Source: Patescibacteria group bacterium (lineage in GTDB: Bacteria > Patescibacteriota > Patescibacteriia > UBA2591 > UBA6264). From it: DNA of 15,658 nucleotides. The stretch spans positions 1 through 15,658 of the forward strand of contig JAQTOB010000012.1 in NCBI GenBank assembly GCA_028713575.1, given 5' to 3'. This document shows positions 3,001-15,658 of this stretch, in pieces (position 1 is the stretch's first letter; the number at the start of each line of letters is the position of its first letter). The position numbers were made by a program, and so were the translations under genes. The notes beneath the pieces are model-generated. The model was not told where the DNA came from. It saw nothing but the letters and a program-made list of their open reading frames with translations, and searched no databases.

Positions 3001-3051
3001 GAGGCGGTGATAAAAGACTTAGAAAGAAAACAAAAACAGTTTTGGTCATAA
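1..3051 (+). CDS. Large membrane protein, 5'-truncated by the window edge. It has a TrbL/VirB6-like polytopic membrane region, then a ~800-aa Lys/Glu/Asn/Gln-rich coiled-coil with internal tandem repeats, then a C-terminal globular region.
   Basis: Frame 1 is open from base 1 (FRIVILWFLVLLSPVAF...), so the TTG at 25 in the ORF track is probably internal and the gene continues upstream. Three hydrophobic helices lie in the first ~125 aa (VLLSPVAFMGSVL; VIVGPILAFFLWLSFSMV; ILNFIIGIGMLLGSLMVAQQMGV). They are followed by a Gly/Ala/Lys-rich tail (AGGKMAGQALGKIQAMGSGVAK), as seen after the last TM of TrbL/VirB6-type proteins. The gene sits upstream of VirB3/VirB4-like genes. That this is a coding region is near certain; the VirB6 assignment rests on motif and synteny recognition only. 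Confidence 0.55.
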   Translation, partial: FRIVILWFLVLLSPVAFMGSVLPSFQRYANQWWEKFTSQVIVGPILAFFLWLSFSMVQTSDNIYKTVVVPGSQTEEYIAGGMSNSAGTGTQLSAAISEAGRPEYILNFIIGIGMLLGSLMVAQQMGVAGGKMAGQALGKIQAMGSGVAKWPFKTAGKGIKSLSKYAVKSAEASVGIPLTKERWQRILADRREWIDKKRDAKFIKQREKGILSFLPKGEAGEKGWSHVLTWKEGGKAIGRVFQGLTGKADKLRKKATEMGKNKQEEDETSEHKIREGEILNQDKQYENKLNEQRENKNQLETNSNIFTKSGDRIMQLDDVDKYIENLEAQIEKARSKNEDDPWVGKAEIFLEGLKKQTTLAKKGNQKTIDLNTLGPNVDKNFYSQNITKWFNKEVKTAGQAIEKTEQEQENWQKKKKNYEFTKEDYTNVRSGMTNLEMSITELNLDEQTKNKFLKRINDLQDELGDGSDDAFNKLSQEKKNELAHKAWTLKDDLEQETDNLKKEGKIDTDQIMGIKDFCKKIHSSLSKEVIKESFTREDHEKTKGNIKNLAATIETLDLSPEAKNNLQNELNALQKELETPFDELTLGKRNRIASQFEKIKDNLNQEMENNKIAPEKAQKISDSAQGIHSTLNRRVVGRFTREDHEKTKGNIKNLAATIETLDLSPEAKGYFQNELNALQKELETPFDKLTPEKKSRIANQFEKIKDNLNQEMENNKIAPEKAQEISDSAQGVHLILEKEKKLKEKIEKRKQLEHEIADLQSQAEMIQPRTMTAEQRRVLNVEVMKEYESVKEIDDSQELITLYRQAEKKKNVGLAKAILMKLNSQNDINEILGEFNLEQNFRGMADLGKIIHDKLGISQQEAYMFINDLSFKNKNAGLYRLSAAVGRDKRTGLYRPLDEEEHKKIVLIESGKAESENFYRKASWAALFGKKTDPNTGERIPIFDETTEAMLKRDIDTIHKELLQNFRLEKEMQRNMAHKNVLDGMKNMLSAMYGEAKIKMEAVIKDLERKQKQFWS
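1258..2229 (+). repeat. In-frame tandem repeat inside the VirB6-like gene. One diverged unit (1258-1599, 114 aa) is followed by two near-identical 315-nt / 105-aa units (1600-1914 and 1915-2229).
   Basis: Each unit starts with FT(K/R)ED(Y/H). Units 2 and 3 both read FTREDHEKTKGNIKNLAATIETLDLSPEAK...NELNALQKELETPFD...QFEKIKDNLNQEMENNKIAPEKAQ.ISDSAQG. The first ~90 nt of units 2 and 3 (from 1600 and 1915) are identical. Close similarity continues to about 1884 and 2199, with scattered substitutions. Unit 1 (FTKEDYTNVRSGMTNLEMSITELNLDEQTKNKFLKRINDLQDEL...) is recognisable only at the protein level. Confidence 0.9.
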
Positions 3052-3066
3052 TAAAATATTTTAAAT

Positions 3067-4989
3067 ATGTTGGAAAAGGAAAAATTAAATTTTCTTATTG
3101 AAGAAACGAGAGAAAAAATAAAACAAGAAATTGCTGAAGGATTTTTTTATCATTCTGATAAGATGAAAAAGTGGTATCAAACTAGAAAAGAATTAGGGGA
3201 GTTTTTAAAAAAAGGGGGCGACTTAAAAGAAACTAATCCTTTGGTTTATGACCAATGTTTAGATTTATTAAATAAAATTAAATGGTTTTCTTTTGTTCAT
3301 CTGAAGTCAGAAGATTTTATTGATTTATTCAGACAGGGCTTAAAATATGCCTTAATGAGCAAAGATTATCCCTTAGAAAAAAATTTAAGCATGTTTTTAA
3401 TTGACATTCCTATTCTTTCTGTCAGGGATGAATATAAAGGGAAAATACGCGAAGCAATGTTTGCTAATCAAGAAAAATTAACTTCCAAGAAAATTGTTAT
3501 GGGAAATAAAGAAAAAGACCCAACCATAAGTAATTGGTTAAAATTTTATGACACAGAGTTAGGGGCGGGAAATGTGGAAAAATTAAAAACATTAGAAATT
3601 TTATTTAACAATAAAAATGTTATCAAATTGTCAACCGAAGAAAAGCAAGTAATCAAACGTTTGATTGACCTTTATGAGGAATTAAAAATATCCGCTATAA
3701 CCGTAGAAGGATTGGAAGAAGAAGATTATGTTATAGATGAAAATGGAGAAATAGAATATCATAAAAGAAGTTATGTGGAAAAAATCAGTCAAGGATTTGC
3801 TAAAACAAAAAAACAAAAAGCATTAAAATTAGAAAAAGAAATGATTCAGGAAAAGATAAAGGCGGAAAAAATTAAAGAAGAAGCGAATTTAATTGATATA
3901 AATCAAGCAATCGGAGAAGTAATTAAAAGAACTAATTTAACATTCCCCCAAGAGGACCTTGAAAAAAGATTTAAAAATATTATTTTGTCTTTTTTAAAAG
4001 ATGTCCGCACGGGCATTGAAACAAAAATTACCCTTAAAAGAGAAACGCAAATTGGCGGCATGGGATTTGACCAAGAAACAACTGATAAAATAATGGATAT
4101 TTTAAAAAATGTTAAGCCTAAAATTGACCAAAAGTTTTTAAAAGAAGAATTGTTATCAAATGGGGTTTTAAAATCAGAATTATCAACAAAAATGTCGTTT
4201 CCCGCTGGTCAATTAGATAAAATTATTCAAACAGAAACAAGGCAGACATTAAACGTTGAACCAATAAGCAAAAAAAAAGAGACAATTGCGTCTAAACAGG
4301 AGCAAGTTTTTAAAACAAAATCAAAGTCACCTTTTGTTCCTCCGCCAATTATTAAACAAACGCCCTCCGCGCCTGTTTTATCAGAGCAAAAGACAATACC
4401 TTCTCTTCAAGCATCAATTTCAACCTCCACAGTTAAACAAGAGCCGGTCATCCAAATTCAAGAATCAACAATTAAAAAAGAAGTCAAGCCAAAGCTGGAA
4501 GAAAAACAAAAAACAGAAACACAAATTTCTTTATCTAAAGACATTGTTTCGCCGTCGCAAAATATTTCCCAGACAAAAACAGAAGAACCCGTTAAAATAG
4601 AAATACCCGTTCGTCGGCCAATTGAATTGCACAAACCCGTGGTTGAAGAAATAAAAGTCAAACCTAAAACATACAGCCCCATTGATGAACTAAGGACAAT
4701 CACTTTAATTGATTGGCGTCGCTGGGGAACCCCGAAAGAAGCAGCCAAAATGGTTCAAAATAAAATAAATTTATTAGCCGAAGAATCTTTAGTTAAAAAA
4801 GCCGAAGGAATTAAGGCCTGGAAGAGTTCAGAAATTAATCAATTATATTTAAATATTGGGGCAGAATCAATTGACCAAGGAAAGTCGGTAAATGAAATAA
4901 TTATCCAAAGACAGCAACAAAATAAGCCAACCCTGAACGAAGAAGAGTTTAATGTTGTGGTGGAATTGAACCAGAAACTGCGCTTCTAA
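3067..4989 (+). CDS. Hypothetical 640-aa protein with no predicted TM segment or signal peptide. It has an N-terminal globular region, a Lys/Glu-rich helical region, a Pro/Ser/Thr/Gln/Lys-rich low-complexity spacer and a compact C-terminal domain.
   Basis: Long ORF starting 15 nt after the preceding stop, on the same strand as the T4SS-like genes. The low-complexity spacer spans roughly nt 4260-4690 (SPFVPPPIIKQTPSAPVLSEQKTIPSLQASISTSTVKQEPVIQIQ...). The C-terminal ~100 aa reads LIDWRRWGTPKEAAKMVQNKINLLAEESLVKKAEGIKAWKSSEINQLYLNIG.... I do not recognise a family. Confidence 0.7.
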   Translation: MLEKEKLNFLIEETREKIKQEIAEGFFYHSDKMKKWYQTRKELGEFLKKGGDLKETNPLVYDQCLDLLNKIKWFSFVHLKSEDFIDLFRQGLKYALMSKDYPLEKNLSMFLIDIPILSVRDEYKGKIREAMFANQEKLTSKKIVMGNKEKDPTISNWLKFYDTELGAGNVEKLKTLEILFNNKNVIKLSTEEKQVIKRLIDLYEELKISAITVEGLEEEDYVIDENGEIEYHKRSYVEKISQGFAKTKKQKALKLEKEMIQEKIKAEKIKEEANLIDINQAIGEVIKRTNLTFPQEDLEKRFKNIILSFLKDVRTGIETKITLKRETQIGGMGFDQETTDKIMDILKNVKPKIDQKFLKEELLSNGVLKSELSTKMSFPAGQLDKIIQTETRQTLNVEPISKKKETIASKQEQVFKTKSKSPFVPPPIIKQTPSAPVLSEQKTIPSLQASISTSTVKQEPVIQIQESTIKKEVKPKLEEKQKTETQISLSKDIVSPSQNISQTKTEEPVKIEIPVRRPIELHKPVVEEIKVKPKTYSPIDELRTITLIDWRRWGTPKEAAKMVQNKINLLAEESLVKKAEGIKAWKSSEINQLYLNIGAESIDQGKSVNEIIIQRQQQNKPTLNEEEFNVVVELNQKLRF

Positions 4990-5074
4990 AAATAGGCAAT
5001 TAGGTGCCTTGGTAATCATGATTTAATATACATTCCCAATGGTTATTTAATTAACAAATCCCCAATTAACCAAT

Positions 5075-5518
5075 ATGCAATTTGTTGTCCCCCAATTTAT
5101 TGATATAGAAAGTAAAATTATCGGGCCAATCACGCCTCGTCAATTTATTATTCTTTTTATTACAGCGGGAGCAATTATTTTATGTTATAAATTAGCCGAT
5201 TTTGCCCTTTTCATCATTGAGGCGATAATTATTCTTGGTTTGGGCGTGGCTTTGGCCTTTGCAAAGATTAACAATCAACCAATTTATTATTTTCTTTTGA
5301 ATATCATCAATGTTGCCAGAAAACCAAATTTAAGAATTTGGCGCCGGGAAGTTATTCAAGTGGTAGAAAAAGACATTAAGGAAAAAACAAAAATCAAGGA
5401 AACAACTAAGGTTCGTCAACCGCTTTCATTTTCTAATTTTTCCAAAGTTGCTCTTTTAGTTGATACGGGGGGGAAATATAAAGAAGAATTGACGGAAAAT
5501 GAAGATTTCAAAATATAG
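5075..5518 (+). CDS. PrgI-family / VirB3-like small T4SS membrane protein
   Basis: The N-terminus MQFVVPQFIDIESKIIGPITPRQFIILFITAGAIILCY, followed by a second hydrophobic helix (ALFIIEAIIILGLGVALAF), matches the PrgI-family pattern: (V)P..I...(D/E)KI.GPLT.RQF followed by two TM helices. It lies immediately upstream of the VirB4-like genes, which is the usual VirB3-VirB4 order. Confidence 0.75.
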   Translation: MQFVVPQFIDIESKIIGPITPRQFIILFITAGAIILCYKLADFALFIIEAIIILGLGVALAFAKINNQPIYYFLLNIINVARKPNLRIWRREVIQVVEKDIKEKTKIKETTKVRQPLSFSNFSKVALLVDTGGKYKEELTENEDFKI

Positions 5519-5559
5519 AATCTGCAAAAAGTTTTAATATCAAAATATAATAATAATTT

Positions 5560-6213
5560 ATGGCAATACCTTCAACACAGAGATATTTAGACATTTCGGA
5601 AATCAAAAATGATTGCGTGGTTTTAAAAAACGGAAGTCTATGTGCCGTTTTATTGGCTTCTTCCATAAATTTTGCCCTTAAATCAGAAGACGAACAAAAC
5701 GCAATTATCCAAAATTATATTCGGTTTTTAAATAGTTTAGAATACACAATCCAAATTGTTATTCAGTCCCGGCCGTTTAATATTAAGCCCTATATTTCTC
5801 AATTAGAAGAATTAAGAAAAGTTCAAAGGAACGAGCTTTTAAAAGTTCAAATGGCTGATTATTCTGATTTTATTAAAGAGTTGGTTCAATTGGGAGAAAT
5901 AATGACCAGGCGTTTTTACATTGTTGTTCCTTACAATCCTTTGGGGGACAAAAAAAGAAGTTTTTTTTCCCGATTTAAAGACATTTTTAGCACAGTTAAA
6001 TTAATTAAAATAAAACAAGAAAAATTTGAAAAATATAGGGAAGAGCTTTTTTCAAGAGTTGATAATGTCATTTCAGGGTTGAATAGCTTGGGGCTTACAG
6101 TTGTTCCTTTAGACACGCAAAGCTTAATAGAGATTTTTTATAATATTTATAATCCGACTGAGGCAGAGATTCAACCAATGGGAGAATTAAAGGATTTAAT
6201 GGTGGAAAAATAA
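5560..6213 (+). CDS. 217-aa protein resembling the N-terminal (non-ATPase) domain of Gram-positive-type VirB4 conjugation ATPases. It has no Walker motifs.
   Basis: STQRYLDISEIKNDCVVLKNGSLCAVLLASSINFALKSEDEQNAIIQNYIRFLNSLEYTIQIVIQSR follows the pattern I recall from the N-termini of Tn916 Orf16 / TcpF-type VirB4 proteins (..Q..IP.....DGI......Y.KT..F.DINY.L...ED...IF..W..FLN.FD..I..QL). Its stop codon is 1 nt from the start of the VirB4 ATPase gene. Confidence 0.55.
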   Translation: MAIPSTQRYLDISEIKNDCVVLKNGSLCAVLLASSINFALKSEDEQNAIIQNYIRFLNSLEYTIQIVIQSRPFNIKPYISQLEELRKVQRNELLKVQMADYSDFIKELVQLGEIMTRRFYIVVPYNPLGDKKRSFFSRFKDIFSTVKLIKIKQEKFEKYREELFSRVDNVISGLNSLGLTVVPLDTQSLIEIFYNIYNPTEAEIQPMGELKDLMVEK

Positions 6214-6214
6214 T

Positions 6215-8095
6215 ATGGCGATAAAACCTTCGGCTCTCAATGAGTCAAAAATTGAAAAAGAAAAAATAAAAACCACCCCTCTTAAAGAAGATAAATCAAA
6301 AGAAATTGTTGAAACAGAGGAATTTTATCGAAAAGGAACAGTCACAGTTTTAGATTTAATCGCTCCTTCGGCCTTAAGGGTTGCCCCTCAATATCTTCAA
6401 TTGGGCGATCGGTATTTAAGAACGATTTTTATTTCCACTTTTCCCCGGTATGTTTCTGTGGGATGGTTTGTTCCAATAATAAATTTTAATGCTCATTTGG
6501 ATGTAGCCATGTTTTTTTATCCGGTCCAAACTAAAATAATTTTGAAACAATTACAAAAACAGGTTGGTAATTTAGAGGCTGAATTATCTGCGGAACAAGA
6601 AAAAGGAATGCCTCGCGACCCTCTTAAAGAAACTGCTTTAAGAGACGTTGAAAGACTAAGAGATGATTTAACTACTGGGGTTGAACATTTTTTTCAATTT
6701 GCCCTTTATACTACCATATACGCCAAAAACGAAAAAGAACTTGATACATTAACGGAAAAAATAGAAAGTTTATTTGCCGCCAAACTGGTCAAAACAAGGA
6801 GGTCTTTTTATCAATCTGAACAGGGTTTTAATTCTACTCTGCCTTTAGCTCAGGATGAATTAATGGTGACAATGAATATAAATTCCTCTCCTTGTGCTTC
6901 AAGTTTTCCTTTTATTTCTTCTGACCTAACTTCAAATAACGGAGTTCTTTACGGCATAAATCGGCACAATAATAGCCTGGTTCTTTTTGACCGTTTTTCC
7001 ATGCCTAACGCTAATTTTATTGTTTTTGCCACTTCTGGGTCGGGAAAGAGTTATTTTTGTAAGCTTGAAGTTTTACGTTCTTTAATGTTGGGAACGGACG
7101 TTATTGTCATTGACCCAGAAAAAGAATATAAACATCTTTCTGACGCTGTAGGGGGAACATATATTAATATTTCTTTGGCCTCGGATAGTAAAATCAATCC
7201 TTTTGATTTGCCGCAAACTGCGGCCAAAGATGTTAAAACTACGGATATTATTCGTTCAGGAGTGATTGCCATTAAGGGACTGTTAAAAATTATGATTGGT
7301 CGGAACTTAGAGGGAGGAACAAAGGGATTTACGCCCCAAGAAGACTCTTTAATGGACCGGGCATTATTAGAAACATATGCCAAAAAAGACATTGTCCCCG
7401 GATGTGACTTAACTAGAGTAGACCCGCCAACGATGAGCGACCTTCAGGAAGTTCTTAGTGGCATGGAAGGAGGAGGAGATTTGGTTGAAAGATTAAAAAA
7501 ATATACGGAAGGCACATTTTCCGGATTTTTGAACAATTCAACCAATGTTAAGATGAATAATCAATTAGTGGTTTTTTCCGTTCGCGACTTAGAAGATGAG
7601 TTAAGGCCCATGGCCATTTATACCATTGTTAACTACATTTGGAATGTAGTGCGTTCGGAATTAAAAAAAAGGATTTTGCTTATTGATGAGGCCTGGTGGT
7701 TAATGCAACATGAAGATTCCGCCAAATTCATCTTTGCTCTGGTCAAACGTTGCCGAAAATATTATTTAGGCGTTACCACTATTACCCAAGACGTTAACGA
7801 TTTTTTGCTGTCACCTTACGGTCGGGCAATTGTTACTAACTCGGCGATGCAGTTGCTTTTAAAACAATCTCCGGCAGCAATTAATTCCGTGACCAAAACT
7901 TTTATTCTCACTGAAGGAGAAAAATATTTACTTTTGGAATGTGGCATAGGAGAAGGCATATTTTTCGCCGGCTCTAAACATGTGGCTATTAAAGTGGTTG
8001 CTTCTTATTCAGAAGACCAATTAATAACTTCTGACCCCAAGCAACTATTGGAAATAGAAGAATCAAAAAAAGAGTTTTCCCAAAATTTAGAATAA
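6215..8095 (+). CDS. virB4: VirB4-family type IV secretion / conjugation ATPase (TrsE/PrgJ/TcpF-like)
   Basis: The Walker A motif is FATSGSGKSY (GSGKS at nt 7037-7051). The Walker B motif is RILLIDEAWWL (nt ~7673-7705). The N-terminal VirB4-type domain reads LGDRYLRTIFISTFPRYVSVGWFVPIINFNAHLDVAMFFYPVQ. The C-terminal motifs RKYYLGVTTITQDVNDF and NSAMQLLLKQ are typical of VirB4/TraC-like ATPases. Confidence 0.9.
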   Translation: MAIKPSALNESKIEKEKIKTTPLKEDKSKEIVETEEFYRKGTVTVLDLIAPSALRVAPQYLQLGDRYLRTIFISTFPRYVSVGWFVPIINFNAHLDVAMFFYPVQTKIILKQLQKQVGNLEAELSAEQEKGMPRDPLKETALRDVERLRDDLTTGVEHFFQFALYTTIYAKNEKELDTLTEKIESLFAAKLVKTRRSFYQSEQGFNSTLPLAQDELMVTMNINSSPCASSFPFISSDLTSNNGVLYGINRHNNSLVLFDRFSMPNANFIVFATSGSGKSYFCKLEVLRSLMLGTDVIVIDPEKEYKHLSDAVGGTYINISLASDSKINPFDLPQTAAKDVKTTDIIRSGVIAIKGLLKIMIGRNLEGGTKGFTPQEDSLMDRALLETYAKKDIVPGCDLTRVDPPTMSDLQEVLSGMEGGGDLVERLKKYTEGTFSGFLNNSTNVKMNNQLVVFSVRDLEDELRPMAIYTIVNYIWNVVRSELKKRILLIDEAWWLMQHEDSAKFIFALVKRCRKYYLGVTTITQDVNDFLLSPYGRAIVTNSAMQLLLKQSPAAINSVTKTFILTEGEKYLLLECGIGEGIFFAGSKHVAIKVVASYSEDQLITSDPKQLLEIEESKKEFSQNLE

Positions 8096-8108
8096 TAAAA
8101 ATATTTTT

Positions 8109-8651
8109 ATGATTAAAAAAAATAAGATACTTATTATCGTTATTGTTCTTATCTTAGTTTTTATTCTTGCTTTTTTTCTTTTATCACAAAAGAAGAGGGT
8201 TAATCAAATGAGTTCATTCCCCGAAAAAACAGAACAAGAAAAAATGGAAGAATTTGAAGGAAAAACCCAAACGACAGAAGACCCGATTATTGCCCTAAAA
8301 GCAAAATTAACTCTTCAGGCTCGTTTTTTCATAGAGCGTTATGGGAGTTATTCTTCAGATAGCAATTACAACAATCGTCGGGCTATGGAAGACCAGATGA
8401 CCGAAAAATTATTTACCAGGGTTATTGAAGAAATAAATTTAAAAGAATTAACAAACGAATTTTATTCTTTAGAGACAAAGGTGATTAATGTTGAATTAAA
8501 AGAGTTTGGCGAAAAAAAAGTCGTTTTTAATGCTCAGATTCAGGAAAAAGAGATAAAATCAGGACAAATAACGACCCTGCCAAAACAAACAGAATTAATT
8601 TTTATCAAGGAAAGCGAGGATTGGAAAATAGATGAAATAAATATATTTTAA
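8109..8651 (+). CDS. Bitopic membrane protein with an N-terminal TM anchor and a ~140-aa extracytoplasmic domain. It may be a VirB8/PrgL-like (NTF2-like) T4SS component.
   Basis: The TM segment is ILIIVIVLILVFILAFFLLS. The soluble domain has an alpha-then-beta pattern (ARFFIERYGSYSS...VINVELKEFGEKKVVFNAQIQEKEI...ELIFIKESEDWKIDEINIF), ending in a W.I strand typical of NTF2-like folds. It sits directly after virB4. The VirB8-like call rests only on architecture and position. Confidence 0.35.
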   Translation: MIKKNKILIIVIVLILVFILAFFLLSQKKRVNQMSSFPEKTEQEKMEEFEGKTQTTEDPIIALKAKLTLQARFFIERYGSYSSDSNYNNRRAMEDQMTEKLFTRVIEEINLKELTNEFYSLETKVINVELKEFGEKKVVFNAQIQEKEIKSGQITTLPKQTELIFIKESEDWKIDEINIF

Positions 8652-8660
8652 TTCAGTTTT

Positions 8661-9374
8661 ATGGTTGAAGAAGAACAGAGGAATCAAGCCGACATAGAGC
8701 AGGAAAGAAAAAGGGCGCTTTATCAAGAACAAAGAAAAAATGCAGGCAAAAAGGAAGCAAAAACGAAAAAGGGACCCAAAAAACAAAGTTCTTTAAACCA
8801 AGAATCTTTGATTAACAGGCCGGAGAAAAAAAATAGTAAAACTGCGCCAAATGACGAGGAAAACGAGGAAGAGCAAGCAAGAGAACTGAGAAAAAAACAA
8901 GCAACAGAACGGTTAGAAAAATCTCAAGCATTGCTTAACAAAGATAAATCAGAGGGAGGCGGAAAAAGAAAAGCCATTAAAGACGCCATGTCGGCCATTA
9001 AAGAACAGGGTTCTGAAGAAGTTTTTAAACAAGCCTCCGGTTTTATTCATAATATTCTTTGGGGATCTCTTTTTACACCAAGCTTTCTCTTTAGTTTGGC
9101 GGGATTAAATATTTATTTTTTAGCTTCAGCAGGTCTTTTTGATAGTTTTATTCCTGAATTGTCTAAAAAAATATCTCCATTTGGACTTCTTATAAAATTG
9201 TTAGGTCGATTTGGCGGGATGATTTTAGGAACGCTTGTTTTGGGCCTTTTGGATTTAATCCTTCTTGCTTTGTTATTATTTATTTTTTTAATTATTTATT
9301 GGTTTATCCATCCCGGAGAATTGATTAAATTTTTGCCGGCTTGGGAAAAATTTGAAAATTTATTTAATTTATAA
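8661..9374 (+). CDS. Hypothetical membrane protein with a ~130-aa highly charged Lys/Glu-rich N-terminal region and a C-terminal cluster of hydrophobic helices
   Basis: The ORF starts 9 nt after the previous stop. The N-terminus reads EEEQRNQADIEQERKRALYQEQRKNAGKKEAKTKKGPKKQ.... The C-terminal hydrophobic segments are ILWGSLFTPSFLFSLAGLNIYFLASAGLF and GGMILGTLVLGLLDLILLALLLFIFLIIYWFI. I do not recognise a family. Confidence 0.6.
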   Translation: MVEEEQRNQADIEQERKRALYQEQRKNAGKKEAKTKKGPKKQSSLNQESLINRPEKKNSKTAPNDEENEEEQARELRKKQATERLEKSQALLNKDKSEGGGKRKAIKDAMSAIKEQGSEEVFKQASGFIHNILWGSLFTPSFLFSLAGLNIYFLASAGLFDSFIPELSKKISPFGLLIKLLGRFGGMILGTLVLGLLDLILLALLLFIFLIIYWFIHPGELIKFLPAWEKFENLFNL

Positions 9375-9384
9375 ATTTTGATTT

Positions 9385-10203
9385 ATGATAAAGAAAAGAT
9401 TATTAATTTTTATTTTAATTGTTTTGTTTTTTATAAATATTAAGTTTACAGAAGCCGCTGTCTATGAAACAGGGTCTTCTGTAGAATTCACTCCCCAGGT
9501 AAGTATTGGGACGGAAATAGAGGCTGGTAAATCAATGGAAATTAGCGGAACGAGCATTGCTAAATATGTCGTTGCTATTTATAACTGGGCTTTGTCTGTT
9601 ATTGTTATTTTGGCCATTGTAATGATTATGGTAGCTGGGGTTCGTTGGATGATGGCTGCCGGCAATGCCTCAATTGTGGGACAAGCCAGGGACCAGATAA
9701 TATCTTCCTTAATAGGATTATTGATTGCCATTGGTTCTTACGCCCTGCTTAATTTTATTAATCCCGCCTTGGTGAGAATGAGGGAAATAGATCCCGGGGG
9801 GATAAAGAATATTAATATTGAGTTCAGAAAATGTGCTGATAATGAAGCATGTGTTTATGATGGTAAAATGAATGATAATTACGATTGTGTCTGTAAGCCA
9901 ACAACGAGAATCTACTTCAATCCGGGGGCGGGTGCAATAGGTCAAGGACTTAGAAAAATTTTAGGATTTAAGACCACAAAAGTAACCACTACTTTTAAGT
10001 CCGACAAGGAGTGCGGTCAGATTGGGTTTTGTGATGGTTGCGGGGGAGTTACAATGGGCGTTAAATGTCTTTATGGCGGTGATTGCGTAGTCAATGATTC
10101 TTTTTACACAGAGGATAATCCTTTAGATGTAAGCGCCATAACCCGAGAGAGTTTTTATAATCCTTCAGCTGCGTATTGCGCTGACCCATCTTTGACCCGT
10201 TAA
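9385..10203 (+). CDS. Secreted T4SS pilin-like protein (VirB2/TrbC-like two-helix hairpin of the type common in CPR genomes) fused to a Cys-rich C-terminal domain
   Basis: The signal peptide MIKKRLLIFILIVLFFINIKFTEA/AVYE is followed by two hydrophobic helices flanking a short polar loop: YNWALSVIVILAIVMIMVAGVRWMMAAGNASIVGQARDQIISSLIGLLIAIGSYALLNFINP. This is the VirB2/T4SS_pilin signature. The last ~125 aa (nt 9832-10200) contain 10 cysteines, whereas the first 149 aa contain none. Confidence 0.7.
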   Translation: MIKKRLLIFILIVLFFINIKFTEAAVYETGSSVEFTPQVSIGTEIEAGKSMEISGTSIAKYVVAIYNWALSVIVILAIVMIMVAGVRWMMAAGNASIVGQARDQIISSLIGLLIAIGSYALLNFINPALVRMREIDPGGIKNINIEFRKCADNEACVYDGKMNDNYDCVCKPTTRIYFNPGAGAIGQGLRKILGFKTTKVTTTFKSDKECGQIGFCDGCGGVTMGVKCLYGGDCVVNDSFYTEDNPLDVSAITRESFYNPSAAYCADPSLTR

Positions 10204-10205
10204 TG

Positions 10206-10241
10206 TGATTGGGCCTGGGGTCTTGATTGGGCCTGGGGTCT
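10206..10241. repeat. Perfect tandem duplication of the GC-rich 18-mer TGATTGGGCCTGGGGTCT. It runs into the palindrome GGGGTC-T-GACCCC (10235-10247).
   Basis: I read this directly: 10206-10223 is identical to 10224-10241. It starts 3 nt after the pilin stop codon, and its G+C content is far above the surrounding AT-rich intergenic DNA. It may act as a terminator or a protein-binding site. Confidence 0.85.
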
Positions 10242-10358
10242 GACCCCCTAAATAGACCTTCTAAAACCCTTGTCAATAAAGGTTTATAGAGCGAAAATTC
10301 CAATTTGGTGTGATTTTGAATGATTTTTAAAAATTTAAAAATTTATAACTAACATCTT

Positions 10359-11645
10359 ATGTCGGAAAAAACAAAAAAAATATTAATTATTATTTTATTT
10401 ATAATTATTGTTATTGGATTGGCCTTGCTTTTATATTTTGTTCTATTTAAAGAAGCGGCACCAGTTGAGACGGTGATTGAGCCAGAAGAAGAAGAAGTCG
10501 TTCCTCGTTTGCCCACAACCAGAGAATCCTGGGAAAGTATGACCATTTCTGAAAGAATTCAGTATGGTTTACCGGCACTTGAATGGCCATCAGAAGAAAT
10601 TGAAGAGATTGTTGAGCCAATTTCAATAATTGTGCCTGAAATTGACGACGTGGCAGATGGAGGGAGGACCTGGGTTACACCGATTTCTGATGACCCGGTA
10701 AAAGGAGCAACATTATCCGCCGATGGCGAGAAAAGTATTTATTATAATTCTGAAACAGGACAATTTTTTTCTACTGATAATTTTAGCAATAAAGAGTTAT
10801 TGACCGAACAAATTTTTTATAATGTTGAAAAAATAAACTGGGCGCCGACAAAAAATAAGGCAATTATTGAATATCCTGACGGATTTAAGATAATCTATGA
10901 TTTTGACACCGAAACACAATATACTTTGCCAAAAAATTGGGAGGAATTTGACTGGAATTTTTCCGGCAGCCAAATAGCCTTTAAGTCGCTTAGTAATTAT
11001 CCGGAGAATAGCTGGTTGGCAATTGCTCAGGCTGACGGTAGCCAGCCCAAACCCATAGAGCACATGGGAGAAAATGCGGACAAGGTGGTGGTTTCTTGGT
11101 CTCCAAACAATCAAGTCGTTGCCTTTTCTTCTACGGGCGAGGCCAGGGGCGTTTGGGAACAAGAAATACTTTTAATTGGACAACATCAAGAGAACAATAA
11201 ATCATTAATTGTTGACGGTCGCGGTTTTGAACCAAAATGGTCGCCCAAGGGGGATAAAATTATTTATAGTATTTACTCTTCTGAGACAAATTATCGGCCC
11301 CAGCTTTATTTAGTAGATGCTCAGGGTAATCAAATCGGACAGAATAAAAAATCATTAAAATTAACCACTTGGGCTCATAAATGTACTTTTAATAAAGACG
11401 CGACCACTATTTATTGCGCCGTCCCTAAGAATTTGCCAGAAGGCGCGGGTTTAGTTTTAGAATTAGCAGAAGATTCTCGCGATGATTTTTACAAAATAGA
11501 TGTGGCAACTGGCATGGTTTCTTTTTTGGCCGAAGACGCCACTGGCGGTTATGATGTGGAAAATGTTTATTTGTCCGAAGACGAAGATTATCTCTATTTT
11601 GTTGATAAAAATACGGAACGGTTGAGATTTATTCAGCTTAAGTAA
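10359..11645 (+). CDS. Membrane-anchored TolB-like / PD40 beta-propeller repeat protein
   Basis: The N-terminal TM segment is ILIIILFIIIVIGLALLLYFVLF. PD40-like repeat signatures recur: INWAPTKNKAIIEY, FSGSQIAFKS, VSWSPNNQVVAFSS, PKWSPKGDKIIYSI. Confidence 0.65.
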   Translation: MSEKTKKILIIILFIIIVIGLALLLYFVLFKEAAPVETVIEPEEEEVVPRLPTTRESWESMTISERIQYGLPALEWPSEEIEEIVEPISIIVPEIDDVADGGRTWVTPISDDPVKGATLSADGEKSIYYNSETGQFFSTDNFSNKELLTEQIFYNVEKINWAPTKNKAIIEYPDGFKIIYDFDTETQYTLPKNWEEFDWNFSGSQIAFKSLSNYPENSWLAIAQADGSQPKPIEHMGENADKVVVSWSPNNQVVAFSSTGEARGVWEQEILLIGQHQENNKSLIVDGRGFEPKWSPKGDKIIYSIYSSETNYRPQLYLVDAQGNQIGQNKKSLKLTTWAHKCTFNKDATTIYCAVPKNLPEGAGLVLELAEDSRDDFYKIDVATGMVSFLAEDATGGYDVENVYLSEDEDYLYFVDKNTERLRFIQLK

Positions 11646-11661
11646 AAGTTTGAAATTTCTA

Positions 11662-11764
11662 ATTAATCTAATTATTCTAATAAATGCCCAATATTCAATT
11701 TTAATGTCTAAATTAATTAATAGGGCTCTGTTAGGTCAATTAGAAATTAGTCAATTAGATTAAT
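11662..11764. promoter_or_regulatory. AT-rich repeat architecture upstream of radA. A 12-nt perfect inverted repeat ATTAATCTAATT (11662-11673) / AATTAGATTAAT (11753-11764) is accompanied by the direct repeat GTCAATTAGA (11735-11744 and 11750-11759).
   Basis: I read this directly from the sequence. The right arm ends 6 nt before the radA ATG. A role as an operator or promoter element is speculative because the region is low-complexity and AT-rich. Confidence 0.25.
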
Positions 11765-11770
11765 TTTTTT

Positions 11771-13078
11771 ATGTCTATTTTTGTTTGTTCAAAATGTGAT
11801 GCTCAATTTCCCAAATGGCTTGGTCAATGTTCGCAATGCGGAGCATGGGGAACAATTATGGAAAAGGGGGAAGAATCAACAGAAATAAAGAATTTTAACA
11901 ATCAAGTTATAGATTTTAATCAGATCAATCAAGAAAAGTTTTTTAAAATAAAAACAGGTTTAAATGAAGTTGATAGGGTTTTGGGGGGCGGAATTGTTTT
12001 TGAGTCATTAATTTTGTTGGGGGGACAGCCGGGGATTGGCAAATCAACATTAGTTTTACAAATTGCAGATAAATCGGCCAATCATCCGGTTTTTTATGTA
12101 AGCGGGGAGGAGTCGGCTCAACAAGTGAAGACGAGAATGGATAGACTCAACATTTCTTCTAATAATTGGAAATTTCTTGGCGAGTCGGACATTAATGTAA
12201 TAATTGCCAGCTTAAAAAGATTTAAGCCCAAGGTTATAATTATAGATTCAATTCAAACTATGGTTTTTCCCGAAATTGCCTCTGAAGCCGGAAATATTAA
12301 TCAAGTGAGAGCCTGTACGTCAAAATTAAGAGAAATAGCCCAAGAATTAAAAGCAGTAGTTTTTATTATTGGTCACGTTACTAAGGAGGGGGTAATGGCC
12401 GGGCCAAAAACGCTTGAACATTTGGTTGACATTGTTTTGTATTTAGAAGGAGACCCCAGTCATCGTTTTCGCTTTCTTCGCGCAGGAAAAAATAGATTTG
12501 GGTCAACAAACGAAGTTGGGGTTTTTGATATGGGTCAGACAGGTTTAATGGAAGTAGTTAATCCTTCGGAGATTTTTTTAGCTAACCGAAACGCGGAAAT
12601 TAGCGGGTCTGTGGTTGTGCCAGTAGTGGAAGGAAGTCGTTCTTTTTTGGTTGAAGTTCAGGCTTTAGTTTCTCGGACTTCTTTTGGTTATCCACAAAGA
12701 AAATCAACAGGTTTTGATTTAAATAGATTGGGGCTTTTAATTGCCGTTTTAATTAAGCGTTGTAATTTTAATTTAGCTAATCAGGATATTCATATAAACA
12801 TTGTTGGTGGTTTGCAGGTTCGTGAGCCAGCCGTTGATTTAGGCGTTGGACTAGCCATTGCTTCCGCCTTTAAAAATAGTCCGATTAATCCGGAAATTGC
12901 TGTTTTTGGAGAAGTTGGTTTAGGAGGAGAAATTAGAGGCGTTAAAGCTACAGAAAAAAGAATTAAAGAAGCTTTTAAATTGGGATTTAAAAAAATTATT
13001 TCTCCGGTTGGAGATTTTGCGGAAACAAAAATCATTCAAGTTAAAAATTTGAATGAAGCTATAGCTCAACTTTGTTGA
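11771..13078 (+). CDS. radA: DNA repair protein RadA/Sms
   Basis: The N-terminal zinc finger is CSKCDAQFPKWLGQCSQCGAWGT (C-x2-C-x10-C-x2-C). The Walker A motif is GGQPGIGKST. The RadA-specific motif KNRFGSTNEVGVFDM is present. The C-terminal Lon-protease-like domain reads INIVGGLQVREPAVDLGVGLAIASAF...EVGLGGEIRGV. Confidence 0.95.
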   Translation: MSIFVCSKCDAQFPKWLGQCSQCGAWGTIMEKGEESTEIKNFNNQVIDFNQINQEKFFKIKTGLNEVDRVLGGGIVFESLILLGGQPGIGKSTLVLQIADKSANHPVFYVSGEESAQQVKTRMDRLNISSNNWKFLGESDINVIIASLKRFKPKVIIIDSIQTMVFPEIASEAGNINQVRACTSKLREIAQELKAVVFIIGHVTKEGVMAGPKTLEHLVDIVLYLEGDPSHRFRFLRAGKNRFGSTNEVGVFDMGQTGLMEVVNPSEIFLANRNAEISGSVVVPVVEGSRSFLVEVQALVSRTSFGYPQRKSTGFDLNRLGLLIAVLIKRCNFNLANQDIHINIVGGLQVREPAVDLGVGLAIASAFKNSPINPEIAVFGEVGLGGEIRGVKATEKRIKEAFKLGFKKIISPVGDFAETKIIQVKNLNEAIAQLC

Positions 13079-13182
13079 TATGGCAAAATTGAACAATTTT
13101 CAAGTATTAAATTACAAATTTAAAACAGTTTTTATCTCAGAATTTTAGATTTTGATATTGTTTATGATTTATGATTTAGGAT

Positions 13183-15267
13183 TTATTCCAGATGAGTTGT
13201 TCGGATAGACTCATTTATTTTTTTTATCAAAAGAGGATAATTTTTAAAATCAGAAGCATTTTTGAATAAGTTTTTAGCAGTTTCGCGCGTTTCTTTAATA
13301 ATTTGTATATCAGAGAGTTTGGCAATTTTTAGGTCATTGGAGAACCCTGATTGTTCCGTGCCAAAAATTTCTCCCGGTCCACGAAGTTCTAAGTCTTTTT
13401 CCGCCAACTCAAAACCATTTTTTGCCTGAATTAAAAATTGAAGTCTTTTTTTTGTTTTTTCTGCTTGAGCAGATAGGTCTCCTTCATTTTCTAAGAATAG
13501 AAAACAATATGACTGGAAGGAACTTCTGCCGATGCGTCCGCGTAGTTGATAAAGTTGAGCCAGCCCGAAACGTTCCGCTCCTTCAATTATCATAATTGAG
13601 GCGTTGGGAACGTCAATTCCCACTTCAACTACGGTGGTGGAAATTAAAATATTAATTTTATTTTCTGAAAAATCTTTCATGATTTTTTCTTTTTGTTCTG
13701 ATTTTAGCCTGCCGTGTAATAAGCCGATTTTAAGGTCGGGGAAAATTTCTTCAGATATTTTTTTATATTCTTCTTTTACTGATTTAACTCCCAGTTTATC
13801 AGAAGGGTCAATTAGTGGGCAAGTGATAAAAGCTTGTCGGCCATTTTTTATTTCCAGTTTAGTAAATTTATAAATGTTTTTTATCTCTTTTGGTTTGATA
13901 ATTTTTGTAATAATTGGTTTTCTTCCCGGCGGAATTTGAGAAATGATAGAAATATCCAAATCTCCATAAAGCGTTAAAGCCACGGAACGAGGAATGGGGG
14001 TGGCCGTCATAGAAAGAAAATGAGGAGAATGGTTAGACGATTGTCTTGTTAATAAAGCGCGTTGATTTACGCCAAAACGATGTTGTTCGTCGGTAATTGC
14101 TAAAACTAAATTTTTAAATTTGGTTTTTTCTTGAATTAATGAGTGCGTGCCAATAATAAAATTTATTTCTCCAACAGAGAGCATTTTCAGTAATTTTTGT
14201 TTTGTCGTTTCCTCTTTATTTGTTTTAATTTTTCCTCTGGTTAAAAGCGCGATTTTAAATGGATATTTTTTAAATAATTTAGAGATGTTCTTAAAATGTT
14301 GTTCAGCCAAGATTTCCGTGGGGGCCATATAAGCGACTTGGTGGCCGGCCAGCAGAACATTAAGAATAGCAATAGCGGCAACAATGGTTTTTCCACTGCC
14401 CACATCGCCTTCTAAAAGGCGATTCATTGGCGTTTCTTTTTCTAAATCTTTTACAATTTCCCACGTCGCTTTTCTTTGCGAATCGGTTAATTTAAACGGA
14501 AGAGACTGAATGAAACTTTTTATTTTATCAGTTTTAAGGTTAATTTTTATTGCTTTCTGGCTTTTTATTTTTTGTTTGATTAATTGATTTCTCATTTGAA
14601 TTAAGAACAATTCGTTAAATTTTAGGCGGCGAGATGCTTTTTCTAACCATTTTTTATTTTGAGGAAAATGGATTTGTTCCAAAGCAAAAGAAAGACTAAT
14701 TAATTCATATTTTGTCCGAATTTCTCTCGGCAACCAATCTTCCGCTTCCTGGGCCAATGGCAAGATTTGACGGACAAGAAAGCGAATTTGTTTTTGAGAT
14801 AGACGCGTTGTACTGGAATAGACGGGGACTAATCGTCCGGTATGAAGAGGACTTTGACGATAAATTTCATAAGAAGGATTGGTTAACTGGAGGCCATAAT
14901 ATTCGTCATGACTGATTTTTCCTGCCAAATATACTTCTTGGCCGGGTTTTAATATTTTGGCTAAAAATGACTGATTGAACCAAATTATTTTTAAAGAATC
15001 GGTTTGGTCAGAAACAATGGCTTCGGTGATGATAATTTTTTTTCTTGGAGAACGATGATTGGCAATCAAGTTTATTTTTGCTTTAATCGTTCCCGATTTT
15101 TTGCTTTTTAAGTCCTTTATCTTAAAAATTTCACTATAATCGTCATAGCGAAAAGGATAATGAAATAACAAATCGCCGGCGGTTTTAATCCCCAGTTTTT
15201 CCATTTGACGGGCGATTGATTTTCCCACTTTGGTTAGTTCAGTAATTGGCGTTTTTATGGTTATCAT
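13183..15267 (-). CDS. recG: ATP-dependent DNA helicase RecG
   Basis: An N-terminal wedge/OB region is followed by superfamily-2 helicase motifs: GDVGSGKT (motif I), DEQHRFGV (motif II), SMTATPIPRS (motif III) and QLRGRIGR (motif VI). The length (694 aa) and the C-terminal LRGPGEIFGTEQSG motif are typical of RecG. Confidence 0.95.
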   Translation of the reverse strand: MITIKTPITELTKVGKSIARQMEKLGIKTAGDLLFHYPFRYDDYSEIFKIKDLKSKKSGTIKAKINLIANHRSPRKKIIITEAIVSDQTDSLKIIWFNQSFLAKILKPGQEVYLAGKISHDEYYGLQLTNPSYEIYRQSPLHTGRLVPVYSSTTRLSQKQIRFLVRQILPLAQEAEDWLPREIRTKYELISLSFALEQIHFPQNKKWLEKASRRLKFNELFLIQMRNQLIKQKIKSQKAIKINLKTDKIKSFIQSLPFKLTDSQRKATWEIVKDLEKETPMNRLLEGDVGSGKTIVAAIAILNVLLAGHQVAYMAPTEILAEQHFKNISKLFKKYPFKIALLTRGKIKTNKEETTKQKLLKMLSVGEINFIIGTHSLIQEKTKFKNLVLAITDEQHRFGVNQRALLTRQSSNHSPHFLSMTATPIPRSVALTLYGDLDISIISQIPPGRKPIITKIIKPKEIKNIYKFTKLEIKNGRQAFITCPLIDPSDKLGVKSVKEEYKKISEEIFPDLKIGLLHGRLKSEQKEKIMKDFSENKINILISTTVVEVGIDVPNASIMIIEGAERFGLAQLYQLRGRIGRSSFQSYCFLFLENEGDLSAQAEKTKKRLQFLIQAKNGFELAEKDLELRGPGEIFGTEQSGFSNDLKIAKLSDIQIIKETRETAKNLFKNASDFKNYPLLIKKINESIRTTHLE

Positions 15268-15318
15268 AAGTTGTTTTATTATAACATTTTAACATTTTAA
15301 ATAATAAAAAAAAAGAGT

Positions 15319-15346
15319 TTGACTTTTTGGGGAAATAAAATATAAT
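15319..15346 (+). promoter_or_regulatory. Near-consensus sigma70-type promoter: TTGACT (15319-15324), 16-nt spacer, TATAAT (15341-15346)
   Basis: Both hexamers are read directly and match the consensus at 5/6 and 6/6 positions. The -10 element ends 19 nt upstream of the tRNA-like sequence. The promoter lies in the divergent intergenic region next to recG. Confidence 0.6.
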
Positions 15347-15365
15347 GTTAATAATGAGAACATTT

Positions 15366-15413
15366 GGAGAGGTGGCTGAGTCCTGCCTGCCGGTAGGCAG
15401 GGGTCGAAAGCGG
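15366..15413 (+). tRNA. tRNA-like 5' fragment (acceptor 5' strand plus D-arm of a class II, Ser-like tRNA) with a 20-nt hairpin inserted in the D-loop. It is incomplete within the window, so it is either interrupted or a pseudo-tRNA.
   Basis: GGAGAGGTGGCTGAGT (15366-15381) and GGTCGAAAGCGG (15402-15413) together match the start of bacterial tRNA-Ser-type genes. They are separated by the near-palindrome CCTGCCTGCCGGTAGGCAGG (15382-15401). No anticodon arm, T-arm (GGTTCGAATCC-like) or 3' acceptor strand (CCTCTCC) occurs between 15414 and 15658. Confidence 0.4.
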
Positions 15414-15418
15414 TCTAT

Positions 15419-15658
15419 ATGTTTTACGTCTACATTCTAAAGAGCCTTAAAGATAATAATCTCTATATAGGGAAAACCAACGATTTACAAAGAAGACTTA
15501 ATGAACATAATGGAAAGCATGTCCAATCAACTAAATCAAGAATTCCCTTTATCATTTTAAAATACTTTAAATGCCGTTCAGAGAAAGAGGCGCTAGAACT
15601 TGAGAAAGAATTTAAAAAAGGGTATAAAAGGGAAAAAATAAAGAGAAAATATAATATT
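15419..15658 (+). CDS. GIY-YIG nuclease family protein (small UPF0213/YhbQ/Slx1-like type), 3'-partial at the window edge
   Basis: This ORF is not in the supplied track because no stop codon falls in the window. My translation is MFYVYILKSLKDNNLYIGKTNDLQRRLNEHNGKHVQSTKSRIPFIILKYFKCRSEKEALELEKEFKKGYKREKIKRKYNI. It carries the GIY-type motif (YVYIL), the YIG motif (LYIGKT), the conserved Arg (LQRRLNEHN) and the downstream Glu (ALELEKEFK). Confidence 0.8.
   Translation, partial: MFYVYILKSLKDNNLYIGKTNDLQRRLNEHNGKHVQSTKSRIPFIILKYFKCRSEKEALELEKEFKKGYKREKIKRKYNI

Follow-up and report, generated by a model that had tools for sequence, protein, structure and literature searches.

Why does the gene of a small nuclease start just behind what looks like the 5′ end of a serine tRNA gene, itself broken by a hairpin? 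The question is raised by the right-hand end of contig JAQTOB010000012.1 (assembly GCA_028713575.1, from a Patescibacteria group bacterium), whose positions 1 to 15,658, the whole stretch of 15,658 nt that was analysed, are called the window here. A preliminary description, made from the sequence of the window, offered three explanations: a tRNA gene interrupted by an intron or mobile insertion that encodes a GIY-YIG nuclease, with the 3′ half of the tRNA lying downstream; a dead tRNA stub reused as promoter and leader; or a tRNA-like leader processed by RNase P. The reading that we consider probable is that a free-standing GIY-YIG gene of the SLX1/UPF0213 type forms a selfish cassette, which parasitises tRNA genes while keeping a functional tRNA. 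The evidence comes from the anatomy of the locus, from empty sites in relatives, from recurrence at many tRNAs, from selection on the open reading frame (ORF) and from the conservation of the hairpin.

A tRNA stub, a hairpin and a nuclease gene

All parts of the locus lie on the plus strand of the window. It opens with the native promoter of a tRNA-Ser(GCT) gene (TTGACT at 15319-15324, a 16-nt spacer and TATAAT at 15341-15346), which had been described as near-consensus and is the sole 11/12 consensus match within the last 1.6 kb of the window; weaker promoter-like matches were no commoner than in shuffles (7, against 5.0 expected). Between the −10 box and tRNA nt 1 lies the transcribed 5′ leader of the original tRNA gene (15347..15365), followed by the first part of the stub, GGAGAGGTGGCTGAGT (15366..15381), which corresponds to nt 1-16 of tRNA-Ser(GCT) and comprises the 5′ strand of the acceptor stem and the 5′ side of the D-arm. 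A 20-nt insert, CCTGCCTGCCGGTAGGCAGG (15382..15401), sits cleanly between tRNA nt 16 and 17, and the second part of the stub, GGTCGAAAGCGG (15402..15413, nt 17-28), supplies the remainder of the D-arm. A 5-nt spacer, TCTAT (15414..15418), which matches neither the tRNA nor the empty sites described below, separates the stub from the start codon of the nuclease ORF (15419..15658). The insert is one base off a perfect 20-bp palindrome and, in agreement with the hairpin first described at the place of the D-loop, folds into an 8-9 bp stem with a 4-nt loop. The predicted fold of the leader contains the hairpin and pairs part of the start codon, with a z-score of only −2.0. A role as intrinsic terminator is unlikely because no U-run follows the hairpin and an essential tRNA lies downstream; the single terminator-like match in the window region is a weak 6-bp stem at 15401-15416. 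That no T-arm or 3′ acceptor strand follows within the window also holds: ARAGORN called no tRNA and Rfam no family anywhere in it, and an Rfam scan of its last 460 nt (15200-15658) at E values up to 10 returned nothing relevant.

The ORF that opens at ATG 15419 runs to the window end, as had been seen, with all 80 codons inside the window and a TAA stop just past it. Its product belongs to the GIY-YIG superfamily: PF01541 matches residues 1-76 with E=1.7e-17, the motifs, the central Arg and the C-terminal Glu are all in place (Y5, Y16, G18, R26, H30, N31 and E62 are invariant in 30 homologues, with the motifs YVY at Y5 and Y16-I-G18), and its profile matches 1zg2, 1ywl, SLX1 and I-TevI. The best matches in PDB are two UPF0213 proteins, BH0048 (1zg2, E=5.8e-15) and EF2693 (1ywl, 1.2e-13); SLX1 (7cq2) matches at 1e-7 and I-TevI marginally, at 4e-3. 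With 80 amino acids in total and the core only, the protein falls within the minimal UPF0213/SLX1-like clade. Inspection of the sequence and a Pfam search found no residues past the catalytic core and no DNA-binding domain, and the other Pfam matches (T5orf172, MUG113, TetR_C_42) were to overlapping related families or below threshold. Pairwise ratios of nonsynonymous to synonymous substitution rates (dN/dS) are low, with values of 0.02 (loci L007/L009), 0.07 (L008/L016) and 0.11 (L013/L014), which shows that selection maintains the nuclease gene; between more distant ORF pairs synonymous sites are saturated. In the protein tree the tRNA-Ser clade groups by isoacceptor. Homologues of 95-129 amino acids, P0007 among them, reflect gene callers that extend the ORF upstream into stub and palindrome: the N-terminus VAESCLPAGRGLRKT, for example, is the translation of GTGGCTGAGT plus the palindrome. 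Database lengths for this nuclease family are therefore partly artefacts.

What lies beyond the window was read from L001, a near-identical 517-kb JGI contig with an identical RecG protein, which carries the locus on its minus strand. There a single synonymous base separates the ORF from that of the window, and its stop codon is TAA; 5 nt further on (past AACAT) begins a complete tRNA-Ser(GCT) at 9561..9468 (ARAGORN; Rfam tRNA, 62.1 bits). The two parts of the stub, joined, match the first 28 nt of this tRNA at 28 of 28 positions, the upstream part being identical to nt 1-16 (9561..9546) and the downstream part to nt 17-28. Since these first 28 nt equal both flanks of the hairpin, the fragment in the window is a copy of the 5′ end of the downstream tRNA, and its likeness to the acceptor strand and D-arm of a tRNA-Ser is not due to chance. 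In addition, 67 nt past the tRNA, AATCCCGCCCTCTCCG (9400..9385) repeats 16 nt of its T-arm and acceptor 3′ strand. Extending the locus in search of 3′ parts of the tRNA, as the preliminary description had suggested, thus yielded both a complete tRNA and a short remnant. The full order is promoter, 5′ stub with palindrome, 5 nt, ORF, 5 nt, tRNA-Ser(GCT), a hairpin-bearing trailer of 67 nt and the 16-nt 3′ remnant; the insertion measures about 0.45 kb and contains only the GIY-YIG ORF and the tRNA, and no recombinase lies between stub and remnant. A second, more diverged piece resembling a tRNA 3′ end, GTTGAACCGCCCCGCCTTCTCCTCCA, lies at about 9310..9285 of the L001 minus strand. A trailer hairpin that pairs with the CCGCCA end is common to the two tRNA-Ser genes of this genome; the relatives have another trailer in common.

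Empty sites, split tRNAs and recurrence at other tRNA genes

Is the nuclease gene an insertion? Relatives found as RecG homologues 76-83% identical share the gene order IF3, L35, L20, tRNA-Asp, tRNA-Arg, DUF5673, tRNA-Ser(TGA), tRNA-Ser(GCT), RecG and RadA. In L240, L241 and L242/L243 the promoter TTGACT...TATAAT is followed by a leader of 9-23 nt and variable sequence and then by an uninterrupted tRNA-Ser(GCT), and the locus holds no stub, hairpin or GIY-YIG gene. Because the same promoter stands directly ahead of the tRNA in these empty sites it is the tRNA's own, and because such sites occur in syntenic relatives the nuclease gene is an insertion. The site is occupied in the window and in L001-L004 and empty in L240, L241, L242/L243 and L244, a presence/absence polymorphism of the kind that marks free-standing homing endonuclease genes, although the separate DNA-binding domain that also marks them is missing. 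Of the explanations first offered, that of a dead stub reused as promoter and leader is thus essentially right: the native promoter is conserved in the empty sites and is the only strong one before the ORF. A mobile insertion in a tRNA gene is borne out by the empty sites, whereas an intron is not, given the complete tRNA downstream and the lack of any intron family; likewise, a 3′ piece of the tRNA does lie downstream, in the form of the 16-nt remnant, but the upstream fragment is a dead stub and not an exon. A leader open to RNase P finds no support, as the stub has neither T-arm nor 3′ strand and obtains no tRNA score; the substrate of RNase P would be the intact tRNA behind the ORF. A second endonuclease-gene polymorphism was observed nearby: a LAGLIDADG endonuclease ORF (PF14528) lies between rplT and tRNA-Asp in one relative, represented by L242 (922-1866) and L243 (239-1183), and is absent at that position in L001, L240 and L244.

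Remnants of a tRNA 3′ end that start in the T-loop lie downstream of the live tRNA in L001, L017, L052, L060, L067 and L076; L005 has a weaker remnant of 9 nt, and the metagenome locus L119 a further one. At the informative loci, pairing in the acceptor stem is compensatory between stub and remnant and not with the live tRNA. In L076 the stub reads CGGGGC and the remnant GCCCCG, against CGGGGA/TCCCCG in the live tRNA; the corresponding sequences are GCCGT and GGACGGC against GCCGC/GGGCGGC in L067, and GGGCCCG and CGGGTCC against GGGCCTA/TAGGTCC in L119. In these loci the resident tRNA has therefore been split, and a different complete copy stands behind the ORF. Arrays and relics, which speak for repeated invasion or amplification and for decay, are also found. 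In L045 (2195-2750) a 250-nt tandem copy of the ORF and the first 15 nt of tRNA-Pro is 100% identical, with a period of 306 nt; 3′ ends of ORFs lie just upstream of the stub in L016, L052, L061 and L134; and in L163, L157 and L051 stub and hairpin are followed by an intact tRNA, with no ORF. An older partial copy, 85% identical, lies further upstream in L045.

The same layout recurs far beyond this lineage. The nuclease protein has more than 100 close homologues, nearly all in Patescibacteria metagenomes, and a scan of one genome per GTDB species gave 557 related stretches, the best 80 of which were fetched. Looking for the gene beside tRNAs, another suggestion of the preliminary description, proved rewarding: at 29 of these 80 loci a tRNA on the same strand abuts the stop codon, starting −35 to +28 nt from it, where fewer than 0.2 such adjacencies would be expected by chance from about 45 tRNAs per Mb; the tRNAs are of 13 amino-acid types. 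A further 3 loci have the same layout, but a contig end cuts them or the ORF is frameshifted. The closest homologues (L005-L017) are all on tRNA-Ser (GCT, TGA or GGA) and more distant ones on tRNAs for Cys, Leu, Pro, Phe, Asn, Gln, Val, Thr, Trp, Ala and Arg; the metagenome locus L157 adds tRNA-Lys. The hosts are Patescibacteria as well as, by record titles, Omnitrophota, Planctomycetota, Elusimicrobiota, Bacteroidota and Gammaproteobacteria. A second copy of the tRNA 5′ end precedes the ATG by 25-85 nt at no fewer than 24 of the 29 loci, and at 11 loci the ORF extends 10-35 nt into the tRNA, its stop codon lying inside it. Across the tRNA-Ser loci the stub ends anywhere from tRNA nt 23 to 42 while the palindrome stays at nt 16/17, and a target-site duplication of fixed length was accordingly rejected. 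RecG synteny is not conserved at the other tRNA-Ser cassettes.

Most family members in the sampled loci are not beside tRNAs; those without an adjacent tRNA have no flanking repeats and mostly fall in a separate part of the neighbour-joining tree. A scan of IMG/VR with the protein pattern for a viral reservoir found one distant relative only. A different tRNA association was seen in a separate clade of the same GIY-YIG family (L031, L040, L062 and L063), where a convergent tRNA on the opposite strand (His-GTG or Ile-TAT) ends 12 nt past the stop codon.

Hairpin inserts and a 20-bp palindrome

At no fewer than 20 loci (a lower bound) the stub is interrupted by a GC-rich hairpin insert of 17-69 nt, with 58-85% GC and folding energies of −9 to −44 kcal/mol, usually with no tRNA base lost. 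The inserts fall in the loop or stem of the D-arm or of the anticodon arm, and none comes closer than 13 nt to the ATG. One sequence stands out among them, the perfect 20-bp palindrome CCTGCCTGCCGGCAGGCAGG, called H here. H or a one-base variant follows nt 16 in all of the tRNA-Ser loci L005-L016 and L069, and H or such a variant is also found in tRNA-Leu(CAA) after nt 18, in tRNA-Phe after nt 21, in tRNA-Asn after nt 25 and, in two copies, in tRNA-Leu(GAG) after nt 31; L017 has a rearranged variant array of it. As H is unchanged beside ORFs whose synonymous sites are saturated, it must be constrained in sequence or repeatedly renewed. Its copy number varies between strains with identical RecG proteins, with one copy in the window and three in tandem in L001 (9886..9827, minus strand) and L003 (169..110), and the short-read contigs L002 and L004 end inside the palindrome. 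Variants of it are found in either orientation, as GGTAGG or as the reverse complement CCTACC. The live tRNA of the cassettes never carries a palindrome. Dead tRNA pieces do: in L119 the T-loop holds H, and in L067, as similarly in L052, both the anticodon loop and the T-loop contain palindromes. The pieces in L067 (2826-3005) and L052 (2825-3080), of tRNA-Thr and tRNA-Pro, lie downstream of the live tRNA, the palindromes in their anticodon loop and T-loop are GC-rich, and in L052 a 121-nt dead-tRNA unit with H-like sequence forms two tandem repeats.

The suggested search for further copies of the hairpin reached well beyond the cassettes. The exact 20-mer was found in at least 120 metagenome and 35 IMG/VR stretches, in DNA of 30-71% GC from many lineages; these at least 155 stretches (L085-L239), with 169 exact copies, were examined. 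A nuclease gene lies within 700 nt downstream of 7 of the 169 copies and anywhere at 10 of the 155 loci, and the idea that H is a private part of the cassette was rejected, most copies having no nuclease gene nearby. At about 8 sites a tRNA is no more than 65 nt away from H, against about 1.5 expected; elsewhere H occupies the tips of other hairpins or is embedded in motifs that are short and tandem or of low complexity. Direct repeats of at least 8 nt flank 13% of H sites, against 0.9% under the null, mostly in low-complexity DNA; most sites lack them, and insertion with a regular target-site duplication is unsupported. Nor does H routinely enter live tRNAs, as its removal in silico restored only one intact tRNA, a tRNA-Met on viral contigs. 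This tRNA-Met (L229 2284-2303, L206 8616-8635) is intact except for its variable loop, where H follows nt 45 and would imitate the long variable arm that class II tRNAs have. Some H loci hold 2-4 copies, spaced 9-13 nt or kilobases apart. H is often flanked by short quasi-repeats with a period of 7-14 nt, such as TTGTAAATTGTAAATT, CGTACNTCGTAAAT and GTGAGAGGTGAGAGG (at L005 2440-2450, upstream of the stub in L007/L009, and in L087, L127, L130, L144, L205, L213 and L228), and some stubs are preceded by motifs of this kind in place of a promoter region. We found no description of the H sequence or of the cassette in the openly searchable full-text literature, the scope of our literature searches.

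Short GC-rich hairpin insertions in AT-rich or non-coding DNA are known as bacterial REP/REPIN sequences, GC clusters of yeast mitochondria and double-hairpin elements of Allomyces, and small GC palindromic repeats, single or closely paired and variable in copy number, are sometimes neighbours of mobile endonuclease ORFs. REPs are species-specific, imperfect palindromes that a RAYT transposase mobilises, whereas H is 20 bp only, has perfect symmetry and does not change between genomes of 30-71% GC or in viral contigs; this identity across very different genomes argues against a classical REP and makes H hard to fit into known repeat families.

Elsewhere in the window, RecG is encoded on the minus strand (13183-15267) as the divergent neighbour of the nuclease locus. 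Upstream of the RadA-like and RecG genes lies a type IV secretion/conjugation-like cluster on the plus strand (5075-10203), which, according to Pfam matches of the identical L001 genes, comprises PrgI-like (5075-5518), TraC-like (5560-6213), VirB4/TraG P-loop ATPase (6215-8095) and type IV secretion system pilin-like (9385-10203) genes.

A probable selfish cassette and its rivals

How could a gene persist inside a tRNA transcription unit? We propose that stub and hairpin, as leader, are transcribed together with the nuclease ORF and the tRNA into one RNA that starts at the tRNA promoter, and that RNase P cuts at nt 1 of the intact tRNA. This would release a functional tRNA, making the insertion nearly neutral for the host, and the nuclease would gain a strong constitutive promoter from the tRNA gene. 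The nuclease would then cut unoccupied tRNA genes, probably at loop-forming regions, and repair of the break from the occupied copy would spread the cassette, as for free-standing homing endonuclease genes, while co-conversion or partial duplication of the tRNA would leave stubs and remnants behind. The hairpin may serve to disrupt the target site or the direct repeat formed by the stub, or it may regulate the nuclease mRNA or make it more stable. Branched and stem-loop DNA is the substrate of SLX1, a structure-specific nuclease; given the likeness of the protein to SLX1, and junctions and palindromes that fall where the tRNA gene can form loops, it is plausible that the nuclease recognises structure.

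Several points weigh against a selfish cassette. Homing is inferred, and co-transcription and release by RNase P are read from the layout. The palindrome disrupts the stub, yet an intact tRNA remains and only the contiguity of promoter and tRNA is lost; self-immunity would call for a site that takes in both promoter and tRNA, or for a structural one. Seg family proteins carry a C-terminal DNA-binding region, and to our knowledge every characterised GIY-YIG homing endonuclease has a DNA-binding domain; the 80-amino-acid core has none, and high sequence specificity is therefore hard to explain. Purifying selection as strong and lasting as this is seldom seen in endonuclease genes that are purely selfish, and it could point to a function in the host. 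The empty sites could in principle reflect loss in three related lineages, which is less simple than gain. Finally, the live tRNA of L001 is 88% identical to those of the empty sites, against 61-78% to the tRNA-Ser(GCT) of other cassettes, so that the working tRNA of the window lineage is host-type; stub, remnant and live tRNA of this lineage are identical at comparable positions, and local duplication and import from a close relative are indistinguishable by sequence.

Some of these points would suit a housekeeping UPF0213/SLX1-like enzyme of DNA repair or RNA processing that is merely co-transcribed with tRNAs, the stub being an old relic without ongoing mobility. Such an enzyme would fit the dN/dS of 0.02-0.11 with saturated synonymous sites, the many stand-alone family members with neither tRNA nor flanking repeats, the grouping of the tRNA-Ser clade by isoacceptor and the host-type live tRNA. 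It is nevertheless unlikely in view of the empty sites in close syntenic relatives, of an architecture rebuilt at 13 tRNA types in several phyla, of perfect tandem arrays and ORF-less relics, of a RecG neighbourhood that other tRNA-Ser loci do not share and of stub/remnant pairs that differ from the live tRNA. This last feature, a live tRNA that is a different allele wherever stub and remnant are informative, is also what would be seen if the element or the palindrome plugged the loops of the resident tRNA and the cassette held the only working copy, so that it could not be lost. The position of the live tRNA directly behind the ORF in the same transcription unit, and the GC-rich palindromes found in the D-, anticodon- or T-loop of all dead pieces and never in the live copy, point the same way. 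Precise loss of the ORF would keep the tRNA, however, and ORF-less derivatives exist; hairpins in dead copies fit survivorship equally well, insertions into live tRNAs being lethal; and there is no evidence that the nuclease inserts palindromes. Addiction of this kind seems to us decidedly unlikely.

An intron at a non-canonical position, whose splicing would restore the tRNA, could draw on GIY-YIG enzymes as classic passengers of group I introns and on the short 3′ remnant downstream. It is extremely improbable here. A complete, high-scoring tRNA-Ser(GCT) lies between stub and remnant, which rules out an intron or split tRNA; stub and remnant together lack the anticodon and variable arms; the extra 20-60 nt of palindrome in the stub vary in copy number between strains; and the search for group I introns that had been proposed came back empty, no Rfam intron family matching the window or L001 and no group I or II signal appearing even at permissive thresholds. 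We give virtually no credence to chance resemblance or to an assembly artefact in which the palindrome is a library or adapter chimera. The breaks of L002 and L004 inside the palindrome and its presence in very many unrelated assemblies might suggest one, but the stub matches the adjacent tRNA over 28 of 28 nt, the order stub, palindrome, ORF and tRNA recurs in at least 15 independent metagenome-assembled genomes from different projects, whose ORFs have drifted apart to about 60% identity, H sits at the same tRNA-Ser position across them, and the palindrome has variants in both sequence and copy number.

A more far-reaching idea goes beyond the selfish cassette itself. The GIY-YIG/tRNA cassettes might be the autonomous, and H and other GC-rich hairpins the non-autonomous, members of a new mobile system, a proposal that we consider doubtful. 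It would have a minimal, SLX1-like, structure-specific nuclease attack loop-forming DNA, such as the D-, anticodon- and T-loop regions of tRNA genes and the tips of other hairpins, leading to insertion of the palindrome or the cassette, a step that we put forward just as tentatively. If true, it would explain the plugged loops of dead tRNAs, the occurrence of an identical 20-mer across phyla and viral contigs, and the conservation of H beside nuclease genes that have diverged to saturation.

How does the selfish cassette compare with known systems? Among free-standing GIY-YIG homing endonucleases, T4 SegB recognises a site of 27 bp that takes in the T-psi-C motif conserved in tRNAs (PMC2330249). 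The two have in common a stand-alone GIY-YIG gene among or next to tRNA genes, spread of the gene (presumed for the cassette) with neighbouring tRNA sequence, and related genomes without the gene at the same locus. SegB is, however, much larger, lies between genes and leaves no tRNA stubs, whereas the cassette, known from sequence only, encodes a bare 80-amino-acid core inside a cellular tRNA transcription unit, with a 5′ stub that carries a palindromic hairpin. Fungal mitochondria supply further cases, such as atp6 of Allomyces and the 'mobile ORF' elements of Glomeromycota. Where free-standing endonuclease genes have entered a gene there, part of that gene is duplicated (atp6, atp9, cox1; PMC7487136). 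As in the cassette, the insertion is in an essential gene, duplication or replacement preserves its function and the displaced part becomes a pseudogene fragment; the targets, however, are protein-coding and the duplication is mostly C-terminal, while here a tRNA is the target and the promoter keeps the 5′ part, and a new stop codon there stands against the presumed release of a functional RNA by RNase P here. Phage and island integrases that target tRNA genes likewise restore an intact tRNA with a duplicated segment and leave a partial copy at the other end, but they are tyrosine or serine recombinases, their elements are kilobases long and the duplication is usually that of the 3′ end. The cassette, by contrast, has no recombinase, measures about 0.3-0.45 kb and mainly duplicates the 5′ end, and for want of a recombinase it is not an integrase island, although a 16-nt 3′ repeat is present. 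With the SLX1 domain and UPF0213/YhbQ/COG2827 the nuclease shares the minimal GIY-YIG core, and its best sequence matches are there. In the literature searched we found no role of bacterial UPF0213 proteins in mobility or at tRNA genes, and no account of the invasion of bacterial tRNA genes by a minimal GIY-YIG gene with 5′ stub and hairpin; a 2006 paper on GIY-YIG phylogenomics does not mention adjacency to tRNA genes.

If a selfish cassette is the right reading, the tRNA genes of many uncultivated bacteria, especially Patescibacteria, would be the habitat of a minimal selfish element of about 250 bp of coding sequence, run from the tRNA promoter and rendered harmless by regeneration of the tRNA, with RNase P playing the role that splicing plays for introns. 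It would account for the pseudo-tRNA fragments seen at these loci, for gene calls that are extended wrongly and for contigs that break there. It would also provide the first concrete biological context for the large, uncharacterised UPF0213/YhbQ family, and would point to an 80-amino-acid nuclease with a defined nucleic-acid partner.

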